Assembly: GCA_963837395.1 (NCBI GenBank)
Contig: CAWINI010000004.1
Coordinates: 2,699,484-2,763,483 of the forward strand
Reading direction: 5' to 3'
Origin: an uncultured bacterium
GTDB taxonomy: Bacteria; Acidobacteriota; HRBIN11; JAKEFK01
DNA: 64,000 bases
A model generated the notes under the pieces. It did no database searches. It saw nothing but the letters and a program-made list of their open reading frames with translations, and was not told the DNA's origin. This document shows positions 14,626 through 45,817 of the stretch, piece after piece (positions within the stretch are counted from its first letter, which is position 1; the number at the start of each line of letters is the position of its first letter). A program made the translations under genes and the position numbers.

Positions 14626-14679
14626 ACTTTCCTCCTGCTAACTAAGACGTGTGCAAGAGAAAGTGAACGGAGATTAAAG

Positions 14680-14752
14680 TGAGCCTGACGAGATTCGAAC
14701 TCGTGACCTCCTGAATGCCATTCAGGCGCGCTCCCAACTGCGCCACAGGCCC
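14680..14752 (-). tRNA. tRNA-Ala (anticodon GGC)
   Basis: Hand-folded cloverleaf: acceptor GGGCCUG/CAGGCUC, D-stem GCGC/GCGC, anticodon stem CCUGA/UCAGG with loop AUGGCAU (identical to the E. coli tRNA-Ala GGC loop), T-loop UUCGAAU, discriminator A. CCA is not encoded. The acceptor stem shows G2.U71 and G3:C70. Confidence 0.8.
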
Positions 14753-33297: not shown

Positions 33298-34493
33298 ATG
33301 CATATTAACGATCTGTTGAAGATCGCAACGGAGAAGGGGCCTCAGATCTTCATCTTAAAGTCGGTTCGCATCCGGTATTACGTATCACCGGCGAACTGGT
33401 GCCTCAGGTTGATTTAAAGCGGTTAATGCAGGAAGACACCATAGCCATGGCTTTCAGCATTATGAATAACCGCCAGAAGCAAAAATTCAAAGATCATCTG
33501 GAGATCGATATTGCTTACAGCGTTCCAGGGCTGGGCCGTTTCCGCTGCAACATTTTTCAGCAGCGCGGAACTGTAGGTCTTGTTCTGCGCGTCATTCCTG
33601 TAAAAATTCTAACAGTTCGTGAGCTATTACTGCCACTTGTTCTGGAAAAAATTTCCATGGAACAGCGTGGTTTGATCCTTTGCACAGGAACTACCGGTTC
33701 CGGCAAATCCACAACTCTTGCCGCGCTGATCGATTACATCAACGCACATCGTAAAGCGCATATCATCACGATTGAGGATCCAATCGAATTCCTGCATCGC
33801 GATAAAAAGAGTTTGATCAATCAACGCGAAGTTGAAGTTGATACTAAAAGCTTTTCCGGCGCACTTCGATCCGCATTACGTCAAGATCCTGATGTAATTC
33901 TGGTCGGTGAAATGCGTGATTATGAAACGATTGAAACTGCTATTACCGCGGCTGAAACAGGCCATTTAGTTCTCAGCACGCTCCATACGTTGGATGCCAC
34001 TGAAACCATCAACCGTATTATTGCGGTATTTCCGCCGCATCAGCAAAAGCAAATCCGATTGCAGCTAGCTCAAGTATTGAAAGCTGTTGTTTCTTTGCGC
34101 CTTTTGCCAAAAGCGGATGGTCATGGACGTGTACCGGCAACGGAAGTTCTGGTTTCAACCGCCTTGATCCGCGACTACATTATTAACAAAGAAAAAACGC
34201 GGCATATCCCGGATGCAATTTCCCAGGGGCTTTCGCAATACGGCATGCAAACGTTTGATCAATCGCTGTATTCCTTGTTGAAGAAGAACATGATTACGTA
34301 TGAAGAAGCATTGCTGTGGGCAACGAATCCGGAAGAATTCAAATTGCGGCTGCAAGGTATTTCTTCAACGAGCGGCATGACCCAGGAACAAATCGAAGAG
34401 TTCTCTTTCCGCGGTGATACCGCCGGAAAAGATTCCGTAGATTCAGGCGGAGGAATTGGGGACGAATTCCCCATGGACGAACTCGAACGATAG
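33298..34493 (+). CDS. pilT: type IV pilus retraction ATPase PilT (frameshifted at 33336-33339 in this assembly)
   Basis: Walker A GTTGSGKST and the PilT C-terminal region. The N-terminal 13 codons (MHINDLLKIATEK, GGAGG RBS) are in another frame and rejoin the main ORF (33399..) after a one-base deletion in a G4 run, restoring ASDLHLKVGSHPVLRITGE. Confidence 0.8.
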
Positions 34494-34986: not shown

Positions 34987-37629
34987 ATGAAAACGAACGA
35001 CATCAGGAAAACATTTCTTAACTTTTTTGAACAGCGTGGGCATACCATCGTTCCGTCTTCATCGCTTATTCCTTATGGTGATCCGACTCTGTTGTTCACA
35101 AATGCAGGAATGAATCAATTCAAGAATGTTTTTCTTGGAATTGAAAAGCGTGATTACTTTAGAGCGACATCCTGCCAGAAGGTTTTGCGTGCTGGCGGTA
35201 AACATAATGATCTGGAAAATGTTGGAAAGACCGCGCGGCATCACACTTTTTTTGAGATGCTCGGAAATTTTTCATTCGGTGATTATTTCAAGAAAGACGC
35301 AACAGTCTGGGCATGGGAACTTGTAACTCAGGGCTACAAAATGGATCCGGAACGACTGTGGATTTCAATCCATCATTCGGATGATGAAGCTTTTGAATGC
35401 TGGAACAAACAGGTGGGAGTTCCTGCTGAACGGATCGTACGACTCGGTGACAAAGATAATTTTTGGGCTATGGGTGAAACAGGCCGATGCGGGCCTTGTT
35501 CTGAAATCTATTACGATCAGGGTCCTGAATTCGGCTGCGGGCGCGCTGAATGCAATCTGGAATGTGATTGCGGACGTTACACCGAATTCTGGAATCTTGT
35601 CTTCATGCAATTCAACCGAAATGAAAAAGGAGAGCTGACTCCTCTTCCAAAACCTTCGATTGATACCGGCTTAGGCCTGGAACGTCTTGCAGCTTTGCTT
35701 CAACGCGTACCAAACAACTTTGAAATTGATTCCATTTTCCCGCTGATTCAATTTGGTTCAGAGTTGTCAGCGGTTCAATATCATGCTTCAGAAGCAACTG
35801 ATGTTGCATTGAAAGTTCTTGCCGATCATTCACGTGCCGCAACATTTTTGATTTCCGAAGGTATCACACCTTCAAACGAAGGGCGTGGTTATGTTTTGCG
35901 GAGGATCATCCGCCGCGCGTTACGTTATGGACGCACTTTGCATTTTCACGATCCATTTTTATTCAAAATGACCGGCAACGTTATTGATTTGATGCAAGAC
36001 GTGTATCCGGAGTTAATTCCAGCACGCGAATATGTTTCATTAGTTTGCAAATCGGAAGAAGAAAAATTCAAGTCCGTTGTAGAAAATGCGACTACGCAAC
36101 TGGAATCGCTTTTTGATCAAGCAGAAAAAGAAAAACGCAAAGCCATAACTGGCAAGGAAGCATTCAAGCTTTACGATACCTTTGGGTTGCCGCTAGATTT
36201 CGTTCAGGAAATGGCGAATGAAAGAAATTTCGAAGTCGATACCAACGGCTATGAAGAAGAAATGGAAAAGCAGCGAAAAACTGCTCGCGCTGCCTGGAAA
36301 GGTGATACTGCTTTTGAAGCTCAAGAAGTTTATCGAAATTTGAGTCAAACATTTCAGACCGCATTTACGGGTTATTCTTCGATCCGTGAAACGGAGTGTG
36401 AGATTCTTCAGATCCTGATCGATTATCAAACTGCTGGAAAAATTTCACAAGGTGAAAAGGGCGAAATCATTCTGAACAAAACCTGTTTTTACGCGGAATC
36501 CGGCGGACAACTTGGTGATCGCGGTGAATTAATCGGAGAATCAGGAAAAGCACATGTTGTTGATACGCAAGTCCCAGTTCCAGGATTGATTGTTCACAAA
36601 GTTGAAGTCACTCACGGGTCATTTGAAACCGGATCATTCGTAGATGCTGTAGTGGACCCTTCTTTTCGAGCATCAGTTCGCAAAAATCACACCGCCACTC
36701 ATGTTTTGCATGCGACCCTCAGGCAGCAATTTGGTGAGCACGTGAAGCAATCCGGATCGCTAGTTGCACCCGATCGGTTGCGTTTTGATTTCACCCATTA
36801 CGGCGGTTTGAAAGAAAGTGACATCCGTGATCTAGAACATCATGTGAATGCGCGGATCCTTTCGAATCACCTTGTGAATACTAAAGTAACAACGGTAGAA
36901 GAAGCAATGGAACAAGGTGCAATGGCGTTGTTTGGTGAAAAGTATGGTGACCACGTACGCATGGTTACAATCGGTGATTTCAGTAAAGAATTGTGCGGCG
37001 GCACACATGTTGGAGCAACAGGTGAAGTTGGCGCATTCTTAATTGCAAAAGAATCGAGCACTGCTGCTGGAATTAGAAGGATCGAAGCGATTACCGGAAA
37101 CGGAGCTCTTGATTACATACAACAAGAACGCAAATTGATTCACGATTTGACTTCATCATTGAAAATTTCCCAAGATGATTTGCTTCAACGCATTCAAGAA
37201 TTGGTGGATCGCAACAAAAAACTGGAAAAGGAAATTGAACGTCTGAAGTCAAAAGAATTTCAAACAGCAACAGATTCATCTTTAGTTCGCGAACAAAAGC
37301 TTGAAAATGATCAGCGCATCTTTATTCGCGTGTTTGAAGAAGCAGATCCGGATCAGCTTGGTAATTTTGTAGATGAAACATTCCGTGGGGGAAAATTCGC
37401 AGGGGTTGTGGCAGCTTCAGCTTCAACGGGCGCTATAGCAGTCCGTGTTAGTGAAGCGAATGATGCTTCTAAACTATTACGGAACTATTTTGCCCCCGAA
37501 TTTGGTGGCGGAGGCGGAGGCCGAAAAGACTTCGCTAAGGGAGGCCTCAAAAAGACAAAAGACCTGTCGCCTGCCAGCTTTGCCGATACCCTTCTAAGAT
37601 TAGCAACTCAATACTTTTCCGAGCGATAA
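34987..37629 (+). CDS. alaS: alanine--tRNA ligase
   Basis: Class II aaRS motifs (FTNAGM, HHTFFEMLGNFSFGDYFK), editing-domain HTATH and CGGTH zinc motifs, C-terminal GGGGG DHHA1 domain; 880 aa. Confidence 0.95.
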   Translation: MKTNDIRKTFLNFFEQRGHTIVPSSSLIPYGDPTLLFTNAGMNQFKNVFLGIEKRDYFRATSCQKVLRAGGKHNDLENVGKTARHHTFFEMLGNFSFGDYFKKDATVWAWELVTQGYKMDPERLWISIHHSDDEAFECWNKQVGVPAERIVRLGDKDNFWAMGETGRCGPCSEIYYDQGPEFGCGRAECNLECDCGRYTEFWNLVFMQFNRNEKGELTPLPKPSIDTGLGLERLAALLQRVPNNFEIDSIFPLIQFGSELSAVQYHASEATDVALKVLADHSRAATFLISEGITPSNEGRGYVLRRIIRRALRYGRTLHFHDPFLFKMTGNVIDLMQDVYPELIPAREYVSLVCKSEEEKFKSVVENATTQLESLFDQAEKEKRKAITGKEAFKLYDTFGLPLDFVQEMANERNFEVDTNGYEEEMEKQRKTARAAWKGDTAFEAQEVYRNLSQTFQTAFTGYSSIRETECEILQILIDYQTAGKISQGEKGEIILNKTCFYAESGGQLGDRGELIGESGKAHVVDTQVPVPGLIVHKVEVTHGSFETGSFVDAVVDPSFRASVRKNHTATHVLHATLRQQFGEHVKQSGSLVAPDRLRFDFTHYGGLKESDIRDLEHHVNARILSNHLVNTKVTTVEEAMEQGAMALFGEKYGDHVRMVTIGDFSKELCGGTHVGATGEVGAFLIAKESSTAAGIRRIEAITGNGALDYIQQERKLIHDLTSSLKISQDDLLQRIQELVDRNKKLEKEIERLKSKEFQTATDSSLVREQKLENDQRIFIRVFEEADPDQLGNFVDETFRGGKFAGVVAASASTGAIAVRVSEANDASKLLRNYFAPEFGGGGGGRKDFAKGGLKKTKDLSPASFADTLLRLATQYFSER

Positions 37630-37666
37630 TCTTACCTAAGTGCACCAGATAAAGGCACTTAGCCCG

Positions 37667-37696
37667 TTGACAGCAGGGCTGCCGGAATGTTAAGAT
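37667..37696 (+). promoter_or_regulatory. sigma-70-type promoter TTGACA-N17-TTAAGAT upstream of the SLT gene
   Basis: Consensus -35 at 37667-37672, 17-nt spacer, A/T-rich -10. Confidence 0.4.
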
Positions 37697-37764: not shown

Positions 37765-38475
37765 ATGCTCACAGCATTTCGAAAGCTGGCAGTGCTGACT
37801 TTGTTAATCTGGGCCGGAACTGCTTGCGCGAATTCTGTTCTTTGGAAATTAGATGACAAAGGACGGAAAGTCTTCTACAACAACCCGTCAAAAACAAGAC
37901 TAAAGCTGACCGATTCTGGCGAAGTTTGGCTTGGATATTCCAACAGAGTTGAAGAATACTCCGAGCTGATCAATACGATTTCTCAACGTCATGGCGTAGA
38001 TCCTGAGCTGGTAAAAGCAGTCATTCAAGTTGAATCGAACTACAATGATCGTGCTGTGTCGCATAAAGGCGCATGCGGGTTAATGCAGTTGATGCCGGCA
38101 ACAGCAGCCAGATATGGAGTTCAATCCATATTTGAACCAGCTCAAAACATCGATGGTGGCGTTCGTTATTTAAGAGACCTTCTTGAATTGTTTAACAGTG
38201 ATGTCCGGCTTAGCGTTGCTGCCTATAACGCGGGTGAAAATCGCGTTCAGCGTATCAATGACATTCCGGACTTTATCGAAACCCAAAACTATGTAAGAAA
38301 AGTAATGGCTCTCTATCGTGGTGATATGAAATATACGCCGTACGGTGGTGGCACCGCGCGGATTAGAAACGTAACTTACTACAAGTTCGTTGATAGCAAA
38401 GGTGTCACCCATTATTCGGCGTCGCCTGTTGCTTTCCCCAATGCCACAAAAGTGAGCTTCTCCTATTCATGGTAA
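37765..38475 (+). CDS. lytic transglycosylase (SLT domain) with signal peptide
   Basis: VIQVESNYNDRAVSHKGACGLMQLMPATA...AAYNAGENRV family-1 lytic transglycosylase motifs. Confidence 0.8.
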   Translation: MLTAFRKLAVLTLLIWAGTACANSVLWKLDDKGRKVFYNNPSKTRLKLTDSGEVWLGYSNRVEEYSELINTISQRHGVDPELVKAVIQVESNYNDRAVSHKGACGLMQLMPATAARYGVQSIFEPAQNIDGGVRYLRDLLELFNSDVRLSVAAYNAGENRVQRINDIPDFIETQNYVRKVMALYRGDMKYTPYGGGTARIRNVTYYKFVDSKGVTHYSASPVAFPNATKVSFSYSW

Positions 38476-40581
38476 AAGGCCCCGCATCCTTTGACCAGGG
38501 GCTGTTTTTGATGCACTTGCACAAAGGAAAGGAATACTTCGAACAGAATCAATTTCAAAAAGCTCGTGAAGAGCTGGAAGCAGCATACCATCTGCGTCCG
38601 CAAGACGAGAAAGTCCTGAATATGCTCGGGATGACCTATTTCAAACTAGAAATGCTGCCTCAGGCTGAAGAAATGTACACGGCGCTAACAGCCAATAATC
38701 CCGATGTTTATACCTTACAAAGCAATCTTGGTTTAATTCGGCTGAAACTAGACAAGCTTGAAAAGGCCGAAGATTCGCTCAACCGTGCGCTCGAACTTCA
38801 ACCTTCAAATCCGAAAGCGCATTTTTATCTTGGACTCTTATACGAAAAGATGGACAAGCTGGACAAGGCATTATTCCATTTCGAGCAAGCTCATGCAGAT
38901 AAAATGATTCAAAAAGTTAAGCACAAATTGGAAGAAGTGAAATCCAAAGAATACACTTTACTTCCATTCACAGTTGTAGAAGTGCTGGATGACGAAACTT
39001 CCATTCCGGTGCAAACAGAAGCAATGTTTCAAACAAGTGTTGCGCCTCTGCCGGTAGATGAACCAACACCGATTCATCAAGAAGAAAAGCTTCAGATTAA
39101 GGATGAGGAAATTGCTTCCGCAGCTGCAGAGAGTGAATGGGTAGAAGGTGGATCAAGCACAGGCAAGATGAGACGTCACGATGTAATGGAAGCGATGGAT
39201 CAAAGAGAAGAAGAGGAAGAGCTTGTAGAAGACGCTGAAAGTGAAGAAGAGGTGGTAAAAGAAGAAGCAGTCATTGATGACGAAACTCGCCCTCCGATGG
39301 ATGTAAGTGAATCGGAATCACACGATGAAATGAAATCAGATGATGCGTCTGAAGGAATCAATTCAACTGCAGCATCATTATTCATTCCTGATGAAATGGC
39401 TGCAGATATTTCGCAATTTTTGGCTCAGAGCCGTGATGATGAGCCTGTCAATGAGGAAAATTTTGTAAAGGAACCGCCTGGAGAAGCAACGGTTGAAGAA
39501 AATCATGTATTGGTTGCTACGGTGGAATCTCCATTTGAAGAACCTCCTGAGGAATTAAGCAAAATTCCAACTCCGGAAGAAGTAGAAAATGCTGTTGCAG
39601 AGATGGAACAAAAAGATGATGAACCGGTTGATGAGCAGCGCGAAATACCTCCTGCAAAGGAACCTCCTTCAGAACGTCCTCCATATGAAGAGCCACCTAC
39701 GGAGCAAGTACCGGTAGAAGAACCGGTTGAAGAACCGCCAGTTCAAGCACCGCAAGAAGAAATTGCAACTAGCGATCCGTTTGGTCCGGATGTAATCAAT
39801 GATTCAGTTGAGAAATCATTTGCAGCTGCCATTCGTCCGGATCCACACAGCGCTAGGACAATTGAACATACAATTTCAATGGATCCAGTTGAACATGTTG
39901 TTCATCCAGTTAAAACGCAAGAGCTTTATCAGCCTGCAAATTTGGATCAATTTTCGCGTGATCGATATTATGTCCAACCATTAATTGGAGCAGATCGATT
40001 CCTTTTGATCGATCCACATCTACTTGAAATAATAATTTCCGACAGACTCATCGTTCGAAAAGGAACGATCTCCAGTTTTACCGGCAATCTTTCATTTGAG
40101 CCCTGGCAGAAAGATGATCAGACTCTGCCTTTAATACAAGTTAGTGGCGCAGGAATTTTATTTTTAGCGGAAAGGCGTCAGGATATTTACTTGATTTCAC
40201 TGAACAATGAAACCTTGTTTGTGGAATCGAATCATATTCTTGTAGTTCAATCCGCTTTAAAAGTCGAACCTCACTTTTTCGTAAAGACTCCTTCCGATGA
40301 TAATTTTGCAATGGTTAAAGTATCAGGTAGAGGAACACTTGCTCTTACCTGTCATTCAAAACCTTTGACTCTGAATGTCTACGATGCAATGCCAGCAAAT
40401 ATTCCGGCAGATGCATTGATTGCCTGGTCCAGGACGACTGACATGTGACATTCTGGCTGACCCGGATCTTAACAAGATCATGATGTCAGGCGAAGGCACA
40501 ATCCTGTTGCGATTTACCGGCAGCGGCGATGTCGTGGTTGAGCAAGGCAGTCTCTGGGGCGAACGCCGCACCAAGAAGTAA
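38469..40581 (+). CDS. TPR-repeat protein with a ~300-residue polyacidic linker and a C-terminal AIM24-like (DUF124) domain (frameshifted near 40416-40448 in this assembly)
   Basis: N-terminal TPRs; E/D-rich low-complexity region; AIM24-like beta domain. The last 44 codons (DILADPDLNKIMMSGEGTILLRFTGSGDVVVEQGSLWGERRTKK, carrying the conserved GeG...GpG..vq ending) are in the +1 frame after the apparent stop at 40448; 7-nt overlap with the SLT gene. Confidence 0.65.
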
Positions 40582-40682
40582 TCTCCGCAATTCCGACTTG
40601 CCATCGTTTTTCTTCATACATTTTCATTGACTTGATTCATCAAACTGGCTACCCTTGAAAAGGGCTCAGTTTTATTTTTTTC

Positions 40683-42083
40683 ATGAAGAAGTATTTTCTA
40701 CTGTTATTCCTTCTAATTTTGTCGAAATCTTCTTCCGCCCAAGAGACGGTTTTTCCAAATCCTGCCAGATTCCCAATGCCTGAAGCTTACAAATCCAACG
40801 TAGATTTCTGGATGCGCGTTTACGGTGAATGGGAGGATGACAAGCTGGTGATTCATGATTCCAAAAACATGAACATCATTTTTGAAATCCAGGATATGCC
40901 TGATGAAAATAGCCTGTTATGGTCCGCTGCACGCGCTGGAATAAGCAAGCGTGTCGATTATTTCAAATCTATCTTGCGACAGCTTCAGTCCGATCCCGCC
41001 AATGCGGAGCTTTCCGATGATCATCGAAAAGTTTTTGCACTGTACAAAAATATTTATGACCCTGAAAAATTCAGTAAAGCTGCTGAAAATATTCGCGTGC
41101 AACAAGGAATCAAAGATCGTTTTGAGCAGGGTTTATCGCGCATGCATTTATATTTGGATGAAATCAAGAAAGCACTTCGCGAAGAAGGCGTGCCGGAAGA
41201 AATTGCCTACCTTCCGTTGGTTGAATCTTCATTTAACAATCAGTCACTTTCAAAAACGCGTGCTGCAGGAATCTGGCAATTCATGCCCGCAACTGCACGA
41301 ACTTATGCTATGAAAGTAAATTCAGATATTGATGAACGATTAGATCCGTATGTGGCAACGCGTGCGGCTGCGCGTTATCTAAACAGAAGTTATCAGATGT
41401 TTGGAAACTGGCCAGTTGCAATTATGTCTTACAATCACGGCCAGCAAGGAATCCGAAATGCGATAAATTCATTAGGTACCAGCGATTTCATAACGATAGT
41501 TACACGGTATGACGGAAGATACTTTGGTTTTGCATCAAGAAATTTTTATGCGGAATTCCTTGCAGCTTGCAAAGTGATGGATCAGGCAGACAAGTATTTC
41601 AAGAAAATTGATTACGCAAAAGCTCAATCACATGATTCCATCACGCTTTCCAGATCACTGTATGCCTCTTCATTAATTGATCATTCTTCAATAACACGCG
41701 AAGAACTTCGAACCCTGAATCCAGCATTACAATCCAGTGTAATTTTTTCAAAAAGACCGATCCCTGCCGGCTATGAACTCAGGTTGCCAGCAGGACGTTA
41801 CAAAGACCTGATTTCCTTCATCGCCCAGGTTCGCGGAGCTGAACCACAACAAACCACGCAACCAAAACTAGCTGCTGCGAAAATTACACCGGCAACAAAC
41901 AAAGTTGCGAAAAGCACCCCCCCAGGCTCAAAATGTTCGCAATCTTATGTCGTTCGGAAAGGTGATACGTTGTTTTCTATTTCCAGGAGATTTTCTTCCA
42001 GTATCGCAGAAATCCAAAATGCCAACGGTCTGAATCATAGCCGTATTATGCCAGGACAAAAGCTGCGCATTCCAATCTGCTAA
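40683..42083 (+). CDS. mltD: membrane-bound lytic murein transglycosylase D-like (SLT catalytic domain plus C-terminal LysM)
   Basis: Signal peptide; LPLVESSFNNQSLSKTRAAGIWQFMPATAR...SYNHG catalytic region; C-terminal LysM (YVVRKGDTLFSISRRF...GQKLRIP). Confidence 0.8.
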   Translation: MKKYFLLLFLLILSKSSSAQETVFPNPARFPMPEAYKSNVDFWMRVYGEWEDDKLVIHDSKNMNIIFEIQDMPDENSLLWSAARAGISKRVDYFKSILRQLQSDPANAELSDDHRKVFALYKNIYDPEKFSKAAENIRVQQGIKDRFEQGLSRMHLYLDEIKKALREEGVPEEIAYLPLVESSFNNQSLSKTRAAGIWQFMPATARTYAMKVNSDIDERLDPYVATRAAARYLNRSYQMFGNWPVAIMSYNHGQQGIRNAINSLGTSDFITIVTRYDGRYFGFASRNFYAEFLAACKVMDQADKYFKKIDYAKAQSHDSITLSRSLYASSLIDHSSITREELRTLNPALQSSVIFSKRPIPAGYELRLPAGRYKDLISFIAQVRGAEPQQTTQPKLAAAKITPATNKVAKSTPPGSKCSQSYVVRKGDTLFSISRRFSSSIAEIQNANGLNHSRIMPGQKLRIPIC

Positions 42084-42826
42084 TGCCCTCCGCTAAAACA
42101 GAAGCGTTCGTTCTACGCACTTATCGACTCGCTGAAAACGACAAGATAGCAATTTTGTTTACGCGCGATCATGGAAAAATCCGTTTTGTAGCCAAAGGCG
42201 CCAGAAAAATGAAGAATCGTTTTGGTGCTGCTCTGGAAGTGTTAACCCATCTTCACATCTCCTTCTTTGAAAAACCAAATCGCGATCTGCAAATTCTCGA
42301 TCATGCCGAAATCCTGTTCTCGCCTCACATGCGTGAAGGAGCTTCCCGTACCCATTTCTACCTGTTTTATTTTGCAGAACTAATTCATGAATTCTTTCCC
42401 GATCATGAGAAAAATGTCAAAGCTTTTCGCATGCTGTTAAACATCGAAACAGCATTGAAAAATAAGCAAAATCTCGAGTATGTGGCACGCTATCTTGAAT
42501 TGCATTTGCTGCACTCTCAAGGTATCCTTTCCAGTGTTACATTCTGTTCAGGATGTAACCGCCCCTTTGAGTCTCTCCAGGAACGTCGGTACCTGGGTAC
42601 AGGGACCGAAATCTTTTGCAAACGATGCCGTACTGCGGAGAGTTATGCATTGTCGGTTCCTCTTGTAAAAAATATCGACAGTTTTGAAAAAGGGGCATTG
42701 GATTGGGCGAAAACTCTGCCAGCTCCAGTGATGCAAGAGCTCGGTTCGTTAAATCAAATGTTGATTCAACGATTCCTGGGCAAAGAATTGCAATCCTATC
42801 GGTTGAAAAAACATCTGGCAGAATAG
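42083..42826 (+). CDS. recO: DNA repair protein RecO
   Basis: N-terminal OB-fold pattern (EAFVLRTYRLAENDKIAILFTRDHGKIRFVAKGARK) and a C-terminal Cys cluster (CSGC...CKRC); TAATG stop/start overlap with mltD. Confidence 0.85.
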   Translation: MPSAKTEAFVLRTYRLAENDKIAILFTRDHGKIRFVAKGARKMKNRFGAALEVLTHLHISFFEKPNRDLQILDHAEILFSPHMREGASRTHFYLFYFAELIHEFFPDHEKNVKAFRMLLNIETALKNKQNLEYVARYLELHLLHSQGILSSVTFCSGCNRPFESLQERRYLGTGTEIFCKRCRTAESYALSVPLVKNIDSFEKGALDWAKTLPAPVMQELGSLNQMLIQRFLGKELQSYRLKKHLAE

Positions 42827-42902: not shown

Positions 42903-45817
42903 ATGACTTTCCAGGATTTAATATTCTCGTTACAACAATTTTGGGCAAAACAAGGTTGTATTATTCAACAACCTTACGATATTGAAGTGGGTGCCGGGAC
43001 AATGCATCCTGAAACATTTCTGCGCGTGCTTGGACGCGATCCTTATAAGGTAGCGTACGTGCAGCCGAGCCGGCGGCCTGCCGACGGCCGTTATGGTGAA
43101 AATCCTAATCGCCTTTATAAACATCATCAATGTCAAGTCATTTTGAAACCCTCACCAAGCGATGTTCAAGATTTGTATCTTGATAGTCTGCGTTCGTTTG
43201 GAATCGATCCTTCGAAACACGATATCCGTTTTGAAGAAGATAATTGGGAATCTCCAACTTTGGGTGCATGGGGAATCGGCTGGCAGGTTCTTTTAGATGG
43301 TTTGGAAATCACGCAGTTCACTTATTTTCAGCAAGCAGGTGGAATCGATCTGTCCCCTGTTTCTGCAGAAATTACTTATGGCCTGGAAAGAATCACCGCG
43401 ATGTTAACTTCAAAAGAAAGTATCTATGACATCGAATGGGTCGAAGGATATACATATGGCCAGGTCCGTCTTGCAGAAGAACAGCAATTCTCAAAATATT
43501 CTTTCGAACTTGCGGATATCGAGTTACATTCTCAATTGCTTTCACAATACGAAGCGGAAGCAAAAAGAATGATTGAAGCAGGACTTTTTCTTGTAGCTTA
43601 CGAATATTGCCTCAAGTGTTCGCATGTTTTTAATGTTTTAGAAGCTCGCGGTGCAATCAGTGTAACTGAAAGAACTGGAATTATTGCACGCATCCGGAAT
43701 TTGGTTTGCCAGGTTGCACAACAGTACACCGGAGGTGCCTTTCAAATGCCTGAGCTTCTTTTCGAAATCGGTTGTGAAGAAATTCCTGCGGAAGATCTAA
43801 TTCGATTACCGGAAGAATTAAAACAATCAGCTCAAAAGTCATTTGAGACAAATCGTATTCAGTATTCCGACGTAAGAGCTTTCGCTACTCCGCGAAGATT
43901 GACTCTGGTGGCGGATCTCCAAGTAATGCAACAGGATCTAAAGGAGCAGCGCACTGGACCCGCTCGCAAAGTTGCTTTTGATGCCGCCGGAAATCCAACT
44001 TCAGCTGGATTAGGCTTTGCAAAAAGTGCCGGACTGCCATTTGAAAAACTCGGCATCAAATCTACCCCCAAGGGTGAATATCTGGTTGCTGAAATTTTGG
44101 TAGCTGGCCGCAAAACCCGGGATGTTCTGATAGAAATAATTCCAGCAATTACCAAAGGACTTTCATTTCGCAAGTTTATGAAATGGGGTTCTGAGGATTT
44201 TTCTTTCGGACGTCCTATTCGAAATTTAGTATTGCTTTTCGATAATGAAATAATTCCGCTTACTATCGCAGGCGTTTCTTCAAGCCGCTTCACGTTCGGT
44301 CATCGTTTCATGGGAAAAAACAAAATAGAAGTTGATAGCTTTGGACAATATAGAAAAACACTTGAAGAAAATGGGGTGATACTTGCGTTTGAAGATCGAT
44401 CAGATCGGATCCAACATCAACTTCATGACCATTCGGTGAAAGCAAATAGTGCATTGCGCGAAGATAAAGAATTATTGGAGATAATGGCGAATGAAGTCGA
44501 ATATCCGGAAGTTCTCACCGGAACATTCCCCGAAGAATTCCTGAAGCTGCCGCAAGAAATTTTGATCAATGCCATGCGGAAACATCAAAAATATTTTTGT
44601 GCTACCGATGCTGCAGGCAATTTACTTCCTGTTTTTTTTACAGTGCTTAATATCCATGCTACAGATCCTGAACTGATCCGAAAAGGACACAAACGTGTGT
44701 TGATGGCGCGGCTGCGTGATGCAGAATTCTTCTGGCGTGAGGATTTGAAATCGGATCTGATTACACTTCAAAATAAGCTGAGCCGTGTTACGTACCACGA
44801 GAAACTCGGTTCGTATACCGAGAAAGTAAGCCGGATGCTAAGAATATCGGATGAAATCATTAAACAGACAAAGCTTGAAGAAATTAGTCCGAAACTTCGA
44901 AAACTGATTCAAATGAGCAAGGCAGATCTGGTGACCTTGATGGTTGGAGAATTTCCTGAGTTGCAAGGAATTATGTCCGGATTGTTTGCCCGCGAAATGA
45001 AATTGCCGGAAGAAGAATGGCAAGCTCTTTATGATCAGTATTTGCCGGCTTCCGCTGAAGGCAGCATGCCTCGAAATCTGTTGGGAGCTTTCTTATCGCT
45101 AATTGATCGGATTGAAATTCTTACATCAGGTTATGTGTTAAACATGATTCCAACTGGTTCTCGCGATCCATATGCTTTGCGCCGTGCAGCTACAGCTGTA
45201 ATCCGAATCCTTTTGGATTTTCGATTAAAAATGGATCTGCGGCCGATCATCGATCAGGTATTCACCCTGTACAATCTCAAAACGAAACTCAGCCGTGATG
45301 AGATGCTGCATGGAGTAATGGAGTTATTGGAAGCGCGATTTAGATTTTTGATGGAACAGCGCGGAATTGCCCACGATTATTTAAATGCAATTTTGACTGT
45401 TGGGTCCGGAATTTTTCTGGATGCATTTAATCGGGCAAATGCACTCTGGTCGAAGAATCAATCTGAAGATTTGAAAACTCTGGCTCGATGCTTTAAAAGG
45501 ATCAATAATATTATTTCCGGCCAGCCTGATCATCAAATTGATCCGGAAAAACTGACTGAGGATGGAGAAAAAAGATTGAATCAGGTGTTTACGGATATGG
45601 AATTCCGGGTCAGTCAGTTAATTCAGGAAGGGCAATATCTCGATGCGCTGGACATTATGGTTACTCTCGGTTCCAGGAGATCGATAATTTTTTTGATGAA
45701 GTGCTGGTGATGGCTGAGGATGAACAATTGCGCAACAATCGCATAGCATTGCTGCAAAAAATCAGTCATTTATATCGTAAAATTGCAGATTTTTCGCAGC
45801 TGCAGATTGAAATGTAA
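42903..45817 (+). CDS. glyQS: fused glycine--tRNA ligase alpha+beta subunits (frameshifted near 45673 in this assembly)
   Basis: N-terminal GlyQ ([19 protein letters not shown]...) fused to GlyS. The C-terminal GlyS tail ([45 protein letters not shown]) lies in the -1 frame beyond the apparent stop at 45710; restoring one C in the CC run at 45673-45674 rejoins the frames. Confidence 0.85.

Follow-up and report, generated by a model that had tools for sequence, protein, structure and literature searches.

We analysed a 64-kb window (64,000 nucleotides) of contig CAWINI010000004.1, derived from an uncultured bacterium of the phylum Acidobacteriota, using a listing of its open reading frames (ORFs) and profile searches against Pfam and NCBIfam; all coordinates given here are positions in this window. 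On the + strand, at 37765-38475, lies a gene for a small, predicted secreted lytic transglycosylase of family 1 (236 aa), hereafter the small SLT after its PF01464 domain. It is followed on the same strand by a gene for a protein that combines a tetratricopeptide repeat (TPR) domain, a polyacidic linker and an AIM24 (DUF124) beta domain, hereafter TPR-AIM24. The stop codon of the first gene and the start codon of the second share 7 nt (ATGGTAA), as read directly from the DNA. Together they form a two-gene module that is well conserved and as yet uncharacterised, made up of domain families that are already known. Downstream lie a second transglycosylase gene, with SLT and LysM domains, and recO. 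The initial annotation had described the region as a peptidoglycan-remodelling operon in which the AIM24 protein stands between two lytic transglycosylases. Its domain calls (SLT, TPR, acidic disorder, AIM24, and SLT with LysM) were all confirmed, and the genes described are present at the coordinates stated.

The small SLT was identified by PF01464 (E=1.6e-29, 102.3 bits). The protein contains a conserved N-terminal GRKVxYN motif and the catalytic motifs VESNY, GLMQLMP and AAYNAGE. Residues E90 and S91 and the motifs GLMQLMP and AAYNAG were invariant among ten aligned homologues. Because the catalytic Glu-Ser pair and both motifs are kept in all ten, the enzyme is probably catalytically active. 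The n, h and c regions of a signal peptide can be recognised at its N-terminus, together with an A-x-A-like site and a Kyte-Doolittle value of 1.82, and export by the Sec pathway is predicted from these features. A C-terminal match to DUF4124 scored 23.2 bits against a cut-off of 22. In NCBIfam, the small SLT came closest to the catalytic part of BB0259 (2e-23), well short of the cut-off of that model, and it also matched IagB weakly. DUF4124-like beta-hairpin motifs occur at both ends of the protein, VLWKLDDKGRKVFYNNP and TYYKFVDSKGVTHYSASP, at residues ~25-41 and ~203-227.

As assembled, the TPR-AIM24 ORF spans 38469-40448 and encodes 659 aa. Its first 160 residues (38469-38948) form the TPR domain, for which TPR_1 (2.9e-20, 71.6 bits) and TPR_2 (5.6e-20, 70.2 bits) each matched three stretches and passed the Pfam threshold. 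A disordered linker (aa 161-490; 38949-39938), recognised by its polyacidic, Pro-rich composition and low model confidence, leads to the AIM24 beta domain, which ends in a basic C-terminal tail (39939-40581, with the stop codon at 40579-40581). PF01987 scored 30.5 bits on the unrepaired ORF, against a gathering score of 25.7. Removal of a single A at 40431 raised the AIM24 domain to 60 bits (E=3.3e-16, profile positions 19-202 of 205) and gave a protein of 703 aa. Neither TIGR00266 nor any other AIM24-type NCBIfam model matched either fragment at E<=0.1, from which we conclude that the domain belongs to a divergent AIM24 subfamily. A sequence search of the Protein Data Bank (PDB) with the AIM24 domain returned 1YOX alone, at a negligible E=3.5, and a fold search was therefore needed to confirm the assignment.

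For this purpose we used an AlphaFold2 model of P0001, a protein 96% identical to that of the window, built from an alignment of 75 sequences. The model has a TPR domain of nine helices (residues 10-162) with a predicted local distance difference test (pLDDT) score >90 and a beta domain (residues 500-690) with a pLDDT of ~90. The linker between them is predicted with a pLDDT <50, save for two short helices at the positions of conserved motifs. The top two Foldseek matches of P0001 in the PDB were 1YOX and 1PG6 (E ~1e-9, probability 1.0, target template modelling score 0.66-0.69), and the AIM24 assignment thus withstood both the profile search and the fold comparison. The TPR domain matched a consensus TPR, MamA, OGT and RPAP3. 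A model of the short-form protein P0069 contained the same two independently folded domains. Fixed packing of the TPR and AIM24 domains against each other was rejected, as the predicted template modelling scores (0.40 and 0.47 in the long-form and short-form models, respectively) gave no confident inter-domain arrangement. The architecture in these models is that of a bead, a spacer and a bead.

The linker consists of 27.6% Asp and Glu and 11.5% Pro, with a net charge of -71. The annotated protein of about 700 aa with some 300 residues of acidic disorder was accordingly found, at 703 aa after repair and with a linker of ~330 aa. Long-form linkers share the short motifs TGKMRRxDVMEAM, EELVED, WEKTxP, AADISxFLAQSR and RIPTPEEVEN, and an [IVL]P[TMSA]P core occurs in 64 of the 75 aligned family members. 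RIPTPEEVEN (39566-39600, linker residues ~366-376) recalls the EEVD peptides bound by TPR clamps of the Hsp70/Hsp90 type. One of the fold matches, RPAP3, is a TPR bound to SRMEEVD, and a contact between TPR and linker, within or between molecules, is possible.

The end of the AIM24 domain is not in frame with the rest of the assembled gene. Up to 40430 the domain is read in frame 0; from 40432 onwards it continues in frame +1, and the +1 frame of 40420-40581 encodes the missing C-terminus (...GEGTILLRFTGSGDVVVEQGSLWGERRTKK). This is due to one extra A at 40431: in a DNA alignment the window reads TCC-A-GGA and the relatives L009, L010, L011, L001 and L002 read TCC-GGA (protein identity 96% for L009, 88% for L010 and L011, 70% for L001 and 52% for L002). 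The annotated +1-frame C-terminus is therefore real in the sequence, and the indel lies inside the interval 40416-40450 that had been singled out for a read check. All full-length homologues (~700 aa) have an intact reading frame. The sequence downstream of 40431 is conserved and undecayed, with 2 nt in ~150 differing from the 96%-identical relative. Two further genes in the window are broken. The pilT-like T2SSE ATPase gene (~33300-34493) has a G5 to G4 deletion near 33335 relative to L010 and L001, which shifts the frame of its first ~12 codons and looks typical of long-read assembly errors. At the 3' end of glyS, an essential gene, two extra bases at 45668-45680 (GGTTCCAGGAGATCG against GGACCTGAGATTG) shift the last ~45 codons, which supports the presence of assembly indels in the window.

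Since the relatives lack the extra A, and the pilT-like gene and glyS are broken in the same window, the shift at 40431 most likely arose as an error in assembly or sequencing. The initial annotation had left open whether it was real or an error, noting that it was not at a homopolymer; the insertion is indeed outside any homopolymer, and the option of a real shift has lost ground. A biological shift, whether in a true pseudogene or as a programmed +1 frameshift that yields two isoforms, would agree with this position and with the truncated 659-aa product still scoring above the AIM24 threshold. We nevertheless consider it highly improbable, given the five relatives without the extra base, the undecayed tail and the other broken genes. 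A programmed ribosomal frameshift was rejected because the five aligned relatives are single-frame and have neither the extra A nor a shift site. The shift may alternatively be a very recent genuine frameshift, which is a point against its reading as an error. A basecalling error linked to a motif was also considered, as the breaks at 40431 and in glyS both create TCCAGGA. TCCGGA was not depleted in the window (42 copies) and TCCAGGA was not enriched compared with relatives, so the shared motif is regarded as coincidence. At the glyQ/glyS junction (43730-43750) the window has two extra bases compared with three relatives. In these, glyQ and glyS lie in different frames with an 8-nt overlap, and in the window they form one in-frame glyQS ORF (42903-45710), which is either a real fusion or a further indel error. 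In L092 (ENA ERZ25039536 contig_101291), an error-rich long-read soil assembly of the same lineage, alaS, glyS and TPR-AIM24 are each split into several ORFs. The protein P0060 (641 aa, 'AIM24 only') is likewise an artefact of an assembly-split gene.

A protein search retrieved ~78 proteins with TPR and AIM24 domains. Among the 75 that were aligned, 57 are long forms (641-886 aa) with an acidic linker of 280-518 aa (median 26% Asp and Glu), and 18 are short forms (425-538 aa) with a non-acidic linker of 53-156 aa; the polyacidic expansion is confined to one sub-clade. A scan with one genome per species found relatives of TPR-AIM24 in 149 genomes, nearly all labelled Thermoanaerobaculia or Acidobacteriota, with one Candidatus Fischerbacteria. 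We examined the neighbourhoods of 80 of these 149 loci by searching their ORFs with hidden Markov models made from the window proteins and their relatives, and 75 had enough upstream sequence to be evaluated. In 73 of these 75 loci TPR-AIM24 is directly preceded by a small SLT gene of the same orientation; in one the small SLT gene is divergent, and in one it is absent. The divergent case is L090, where the small SLT gene is on the strand opposite TPR-AIM24. In L021, TPR-AIM24 has no upstream small SLT gene and MazG is directly upstream. The overlap between the two genes is 7 nt in the window, L001, L002, L009 and L010, and 1 nt in L003, L014 and L015.

Three genomic contexts were distinguished. 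In the long-form clade the order is alaS-pair-SLT/LysM-recO-glyQ-glyS-ppdK. In one divergent short form alaS and the pair are followed by a phosphoglucomutase gene on the opposite strand. In most Thermoanaerobaculia the order is zapA-rny-ymdB-...-MazG-pair-variable genes, with MazG usually divergent; here upstream genes recur in 30-57 loci and downstream genes in only 4. The gene for the SLT and LysM protein follows the pair in the long-linker clade only. As the adjacency of the pair is kept while the flanks change, the core conserved module is the small SLT with TPR-AIM24 and not a sandwich of two transglycosylases around a third protein. The annotated three-gene order is conserved in close relatives, and deeper in the family only its upstream pair is retained. 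The arrangement is not due to chance, as it recurs in relatives down to ~43% identity. The C-terminal DUF4124-like motif of the small SLT is present in the long-form clade, and Thermoanaerobaculia have a ...PGMRYLGTR tail instead. The motif is thus swapped between clades and co-varies with the linker type of the partner.

The downstream gene (40683-42083, + strand) encodes a predicted secreted transglycosylase of 466 aa with an SLT domain (3.3e-27, residues 161-268), one LysM (1.9e-15, residues 422-464) and the motifs LVESSF, GIWQFMP and SYNHGQ. Its hydrophobic N-terminus, MKKYFLLLFLLILSKSSSAQETV, is predicted by the Kyte-Doolittle scale to be a signal peptide; it contains no cysteine and hence no lipobox. 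The annotated MltD-like character holds for the architecture of an SLT domain followed by LysM and does not extend to MltD itself, since NF008050, the MltD equivalog, scored 112.7 bits against a cut-off of 508 and the lipobox is missing. With the repaired TPR-AIM24 gene ending at 40581, a gap of 101 nt precedes this gene, and in relatives the gap is 100-450 nt. A terminator-like hairpin with a T-run lies in the gap on the + strand (40652-40675; consensus scan). The statement that the three genes overlap or abut thus applies to the small SLT and TPR-AIM24, with their 7-nt overlap, and not to TPR-AIM24 and its downstream neighbour. The stop codon of the SLT and LysM gene overlaps the start codon of recO (42083-42826, + strand; TIGR00613, 117 bits against 48.7) by 1 nt, TAATG at 42081-42085, which bears out the annotated coupling. 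The same 1-nt overlap was found in L001, L002, L003, L005, L009 and L010, down to ~43% identity. The pairing of a secreted wall enzyme with the recombination mediator recO is unusual. The SLT and LysM gene is a lineage-specific neighbour, in every case coupled to recO, and lies outside the core module.

Beyond recO, the ORF listing has glyQ/glyS on the + strand. Upstream of the small SLT gene lies alaS (34987-37629, + strand). A perfect 8-bp inverted repeat (CTAAGTGC...GCACTTAG), which may form a hairpin, is positioned at 37637-37664, directly 3' of the alaS stop codon and 5' of a promoter-like site on the + strand (TTGACA-18-TAAGAT with a TG extension, 37667-37696). The latter is a weak match from a consensus scan (10 of 12 positions), and counts of promoter and terminator consensus matches in the region were not above shuffled expectation, so that the promoter evidence is weak. 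PADLOC defence models gave no match for the small SLT or P0001 and one negligible match for the SLT and LysM protein. The sole RNA-family match in the window by Rfam and tRNA scans was a tRNA-Ala (GGC) on the - strand at 14679-14752.

The predicted topology of the two products bears directly on how they could work together. TPR-AIM24 has a hydrophilic N-terminus. No signal peptide or transmembrane segment was found in the 78 TPR-AIM24 homologues; the 19-residue Kyte-Doolittle maximum was 1.55 and lay in beta strands or the linker. We infer from this lack of hydrophobic segments that TPR-AIM24 is a cytoplasmic protein. Lacking an export signal, it would be retained there, whereas the enzyme is active in the periplasm. 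The initial annotation suggested that TPR-AIM24 could be a regulator or scaffold that gates transglycosylase activity. For gating by contact this is topologically unlikely, as both transglycosylases have predicted signal peptides and the 78 homologues have none. The cytoplasmic membrane is thus predicted to separate the two products, which makes direct gating of the mature transglycosylase by TPR-AIM24 improbable.

By Pfam and fold criteria, the C-terminal 200 aa of the window protein belong to the AIM24/DUF124 family, together with PA3696 of P. aeruginosa (1YOX), SPyM3_0169 of S. pyogenes (1PG6), yeast Aim24 and plant PAWH1/2. Typical bacterial AIM24 proteins are stand-alone and ~220-250 aa in length, whereas here the domain ends a protein of 430-890 aa, behind a TPR domain and a spacer. 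The subfamily is sharply set apart from other AIM24 proteins: its 205 matches all have the same architecture. The eukaryotic Aim24 and PAWH proteins are membrane-associated complex stabilisers according to PMC10203443 and PMC5822837, the latter citing Deckers 2014. In the literature searched, a gene neighbourhood with TerD genes is the only bacterial context reported for AIM24 (PMC5822837), and it involves neither the TPR-AIM24 architecture nor transglycosylases. Our literature search found no work that treats AIM24 and transglycosylases together, and PF01987 was named in a single plant paper. The claim that this arrangement has not been described is in line with these results.

Among well-studied transglycosylases, MltD of E. 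coli resembles the downstream 466-aa protein in its SLT catalytic domain, LysM and secretion. E. coli MltD has two LysM repeats. The downstream protein differs from it in having one LysM, no lipobox, an N-terminal extension of ~150 aa and the coupling to recO. The small SLT (~210 aa) is comparable to IagB/EtgA of type III secretion, VirB1 and the flagellar BB0259/SltF, which are small secreted enzymes with a single SLT catalytic domain encoded beside a non-enzymatic partner. Unlike these, it is not surrounded by a secretion, pilus or flagellar operon, and unlike such specialised machine SLTs it has DUF4124-like motifs at both ends and misses all equivalog cut-offs widely. The nearest functional analogy for TPR-AIM24 is provided by NlpI and CpoB/YbgF of E. 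coli, in which a short TPR module works with wall hydrolases. NCBIfam matches of the TPR domain to NlpI (E=0.0018) and YbgF (E=0.0035) were far below cut-off and reflect generic TPR similarity. NlpI and CpoB are exported periplasmic proteins or lipoproteins. In contrast to them, TPR-AIM24 has no export signal, and its TPR domain is joined to a disordered acidic linker and an AIM24 domain.

Our favoured explanation, which we judge about as likely to be right as wrong, is that TPR-AIM24 is a cytoplasmic adaptor of the beads-on-a-string type that is co-produced with the small SLT. The pair is a conserved cassette of Thermoanaerobaculia-related Acidobacteriota. Its first gene encodes the small family-1 (SLT) transglycosylase, probably active and predicted to be exported by Sec; its second encodes a TPR module of four repeats, predicted to bind peptides, which a flexible spacer connects to the AIM24 beta domain. 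In the window, the second gene is translationally coupled to the first via the 7-nt overlap, and the two proteins would be made in a fixed ratio. In the sub-clade of the window the spacer appears to have been expanded into the polyacidic, Pro-rich linker of ~330 aa with its short conserved motifs. By analogy with eukaryotic AIM24 proteins, the AIM24 domain may oligomerise or sit at the inner membrane face. The TPR domain would capture a peptide ligand, with the spacer setting its reach. Local peptidoglycan cutting could thereby be tied to a cytoplasmic event, be it division, the assembly of an envelope-spanning structure or the handling of the enzyme before export, and TPR-AIM24 would form no complex with the mature periplasmic enzyme. 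A bolder version of the adaptor, which we regard as unlikely, is a trans-envelope control module of a kind not recognised before. In it, a cytoplasmic AIM24 oligomer close to the membrane would hold out a TPR 'hand', and the spacer bearing this hand would be tunable, reaching ~500 aa and a polyacidic composition in one clade. The oligomer would position, time or sense the output of a dedicated periplasmic transglycosylase.

Several points weigh against the adaptor and its link to the wall. The cytoplasmic location was deduced from absent hydrophobic segments, and non-classical export is possible. The link between the small SLT and TPR-AIM24 is drawn at the level of genes. The function of AIM24 in prokaryotes is unknown (PMC10203443, PMC6393860). 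No fusion of the AIM24 subfamily with SLT, LysM or peptidoglycan-binding domains was found among its 205 matches, so that no 'Rosetta stone' ties the domain to wall functions. In a metagenome scan with the small-SLT alignment, 75 of the 80 nearest SLT loci (the best 80 of at least 600 matches) had unrelated genes downstream, and TPR-AIM24 followed in 5. These matches were mostly generic SLT domains (38-59% identity), and the scan shows merely that the SLT catalytic domain is not special; it is uninformative on the specific subfamily. Part of the adjacency, seen as it is in a single phylum, could be due to inherited synteny. The corresponding rival, that the adjacency reflects co-transcription or inherited synteny without shared function and that TPR-AIM24 serves an unrelated cytoplasmic process, draws on the missing fusions, on the similar SLT domains that precede unrelated genes elsewhere and on carriers that all come from one phylum-level lineage. 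Housekeeping and repair genes are nearby, and DNA repair or the cell cycle would be the candidate process, given recA/recX/alaS, recO, fpg, dinB and zapA as neighbours. We nevertheless regard this rival as doubtful, since the adjacency persists in three contexts while both flanks change, most Thermoanaerobaculia have the pair as its own unit after a divergent MazG with variable genes downstream, and stop and start codons overlap in many members.

Two other rivals assign TPR-AIM24 a more direct role towards the enzyme or its products. It could be a holdase or chaperone for the transglycosylase precursor before export, or it could sense anhydromuropeptides that the enzyme releases and the cell imports. 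Such a role would suit a gene translationally coupled to that of a secreted enzyme, and would agree with the similarity of the TPR domain to type III secretion chaperone families, with all matches below cut-offs. The AIM24 fold is moreover TRAP-like; TRAP binds small ligands between its subunits, and 1YOX was crystallised with six chains. We consider this rival improbable, because a dedicated chaperone is not usual for a Sec substrate of 200 aa, no ligand site has been defined for any AIM24 protein, and the NCBIfam TPR matches are generic and far below cut-offs. Still more improbable is an NlpI-like role in which TPR-AIM24, as a scaffold in the periplasm or envelope, would bind one or both transglycosylases directly and gate them. 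This role conflicts with the absence of a signal peptide, lipobox, Tat motif or transmembrane segment in the 78 homologues. It is in keeping with the tight coupling to the upstream transglycosylase, the second transglycosylase that flanks TPR-AIM24 in the long-form clade, the resemblance of the TPR domain to peptide-binding TPRs among the fold matches and the Pro/Glu-rich linker, which recalls periplasm-spanning rods such as TonB. However, the second transglycosylase is missing from most genomes that have the pair, and in the window it is preceded by the 101-nt gap with the terminator-like hairpin.

The cytoplasmic adaptor, if correct, concerns a family about which little has been established. 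AIM24/DUF124 has many members across bacteria, archaea and eukaryotes and counts among the conserved archaeal 'dark matter' families (PMC6393860); two structures have been solved. The pairing of the small SLT with TPR-AIM24 is a testable lead from this dark family to cell-wall cleavage, and the TPR-spacer-AIM24 protein represents a distinct architecture. The pair also poses a topological puzzle, as a cytoplasmic protein appears to be coupled to a periplasmic enzyme. Should the link be mere synteny, the finding would shrink to the routine annotation of an Acidobacteriota locus with assembly indels. If the link is physical, there would be an unknown route by which wall cutting is coordinated from inside the cell. 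Should the trans-envelope module prove true, it would provide the first functional context for prokaryotic AIM24/DUF124 proteins, and would parallel the way in which eukaryotic Aim24 and PAWH stabilise complexes.

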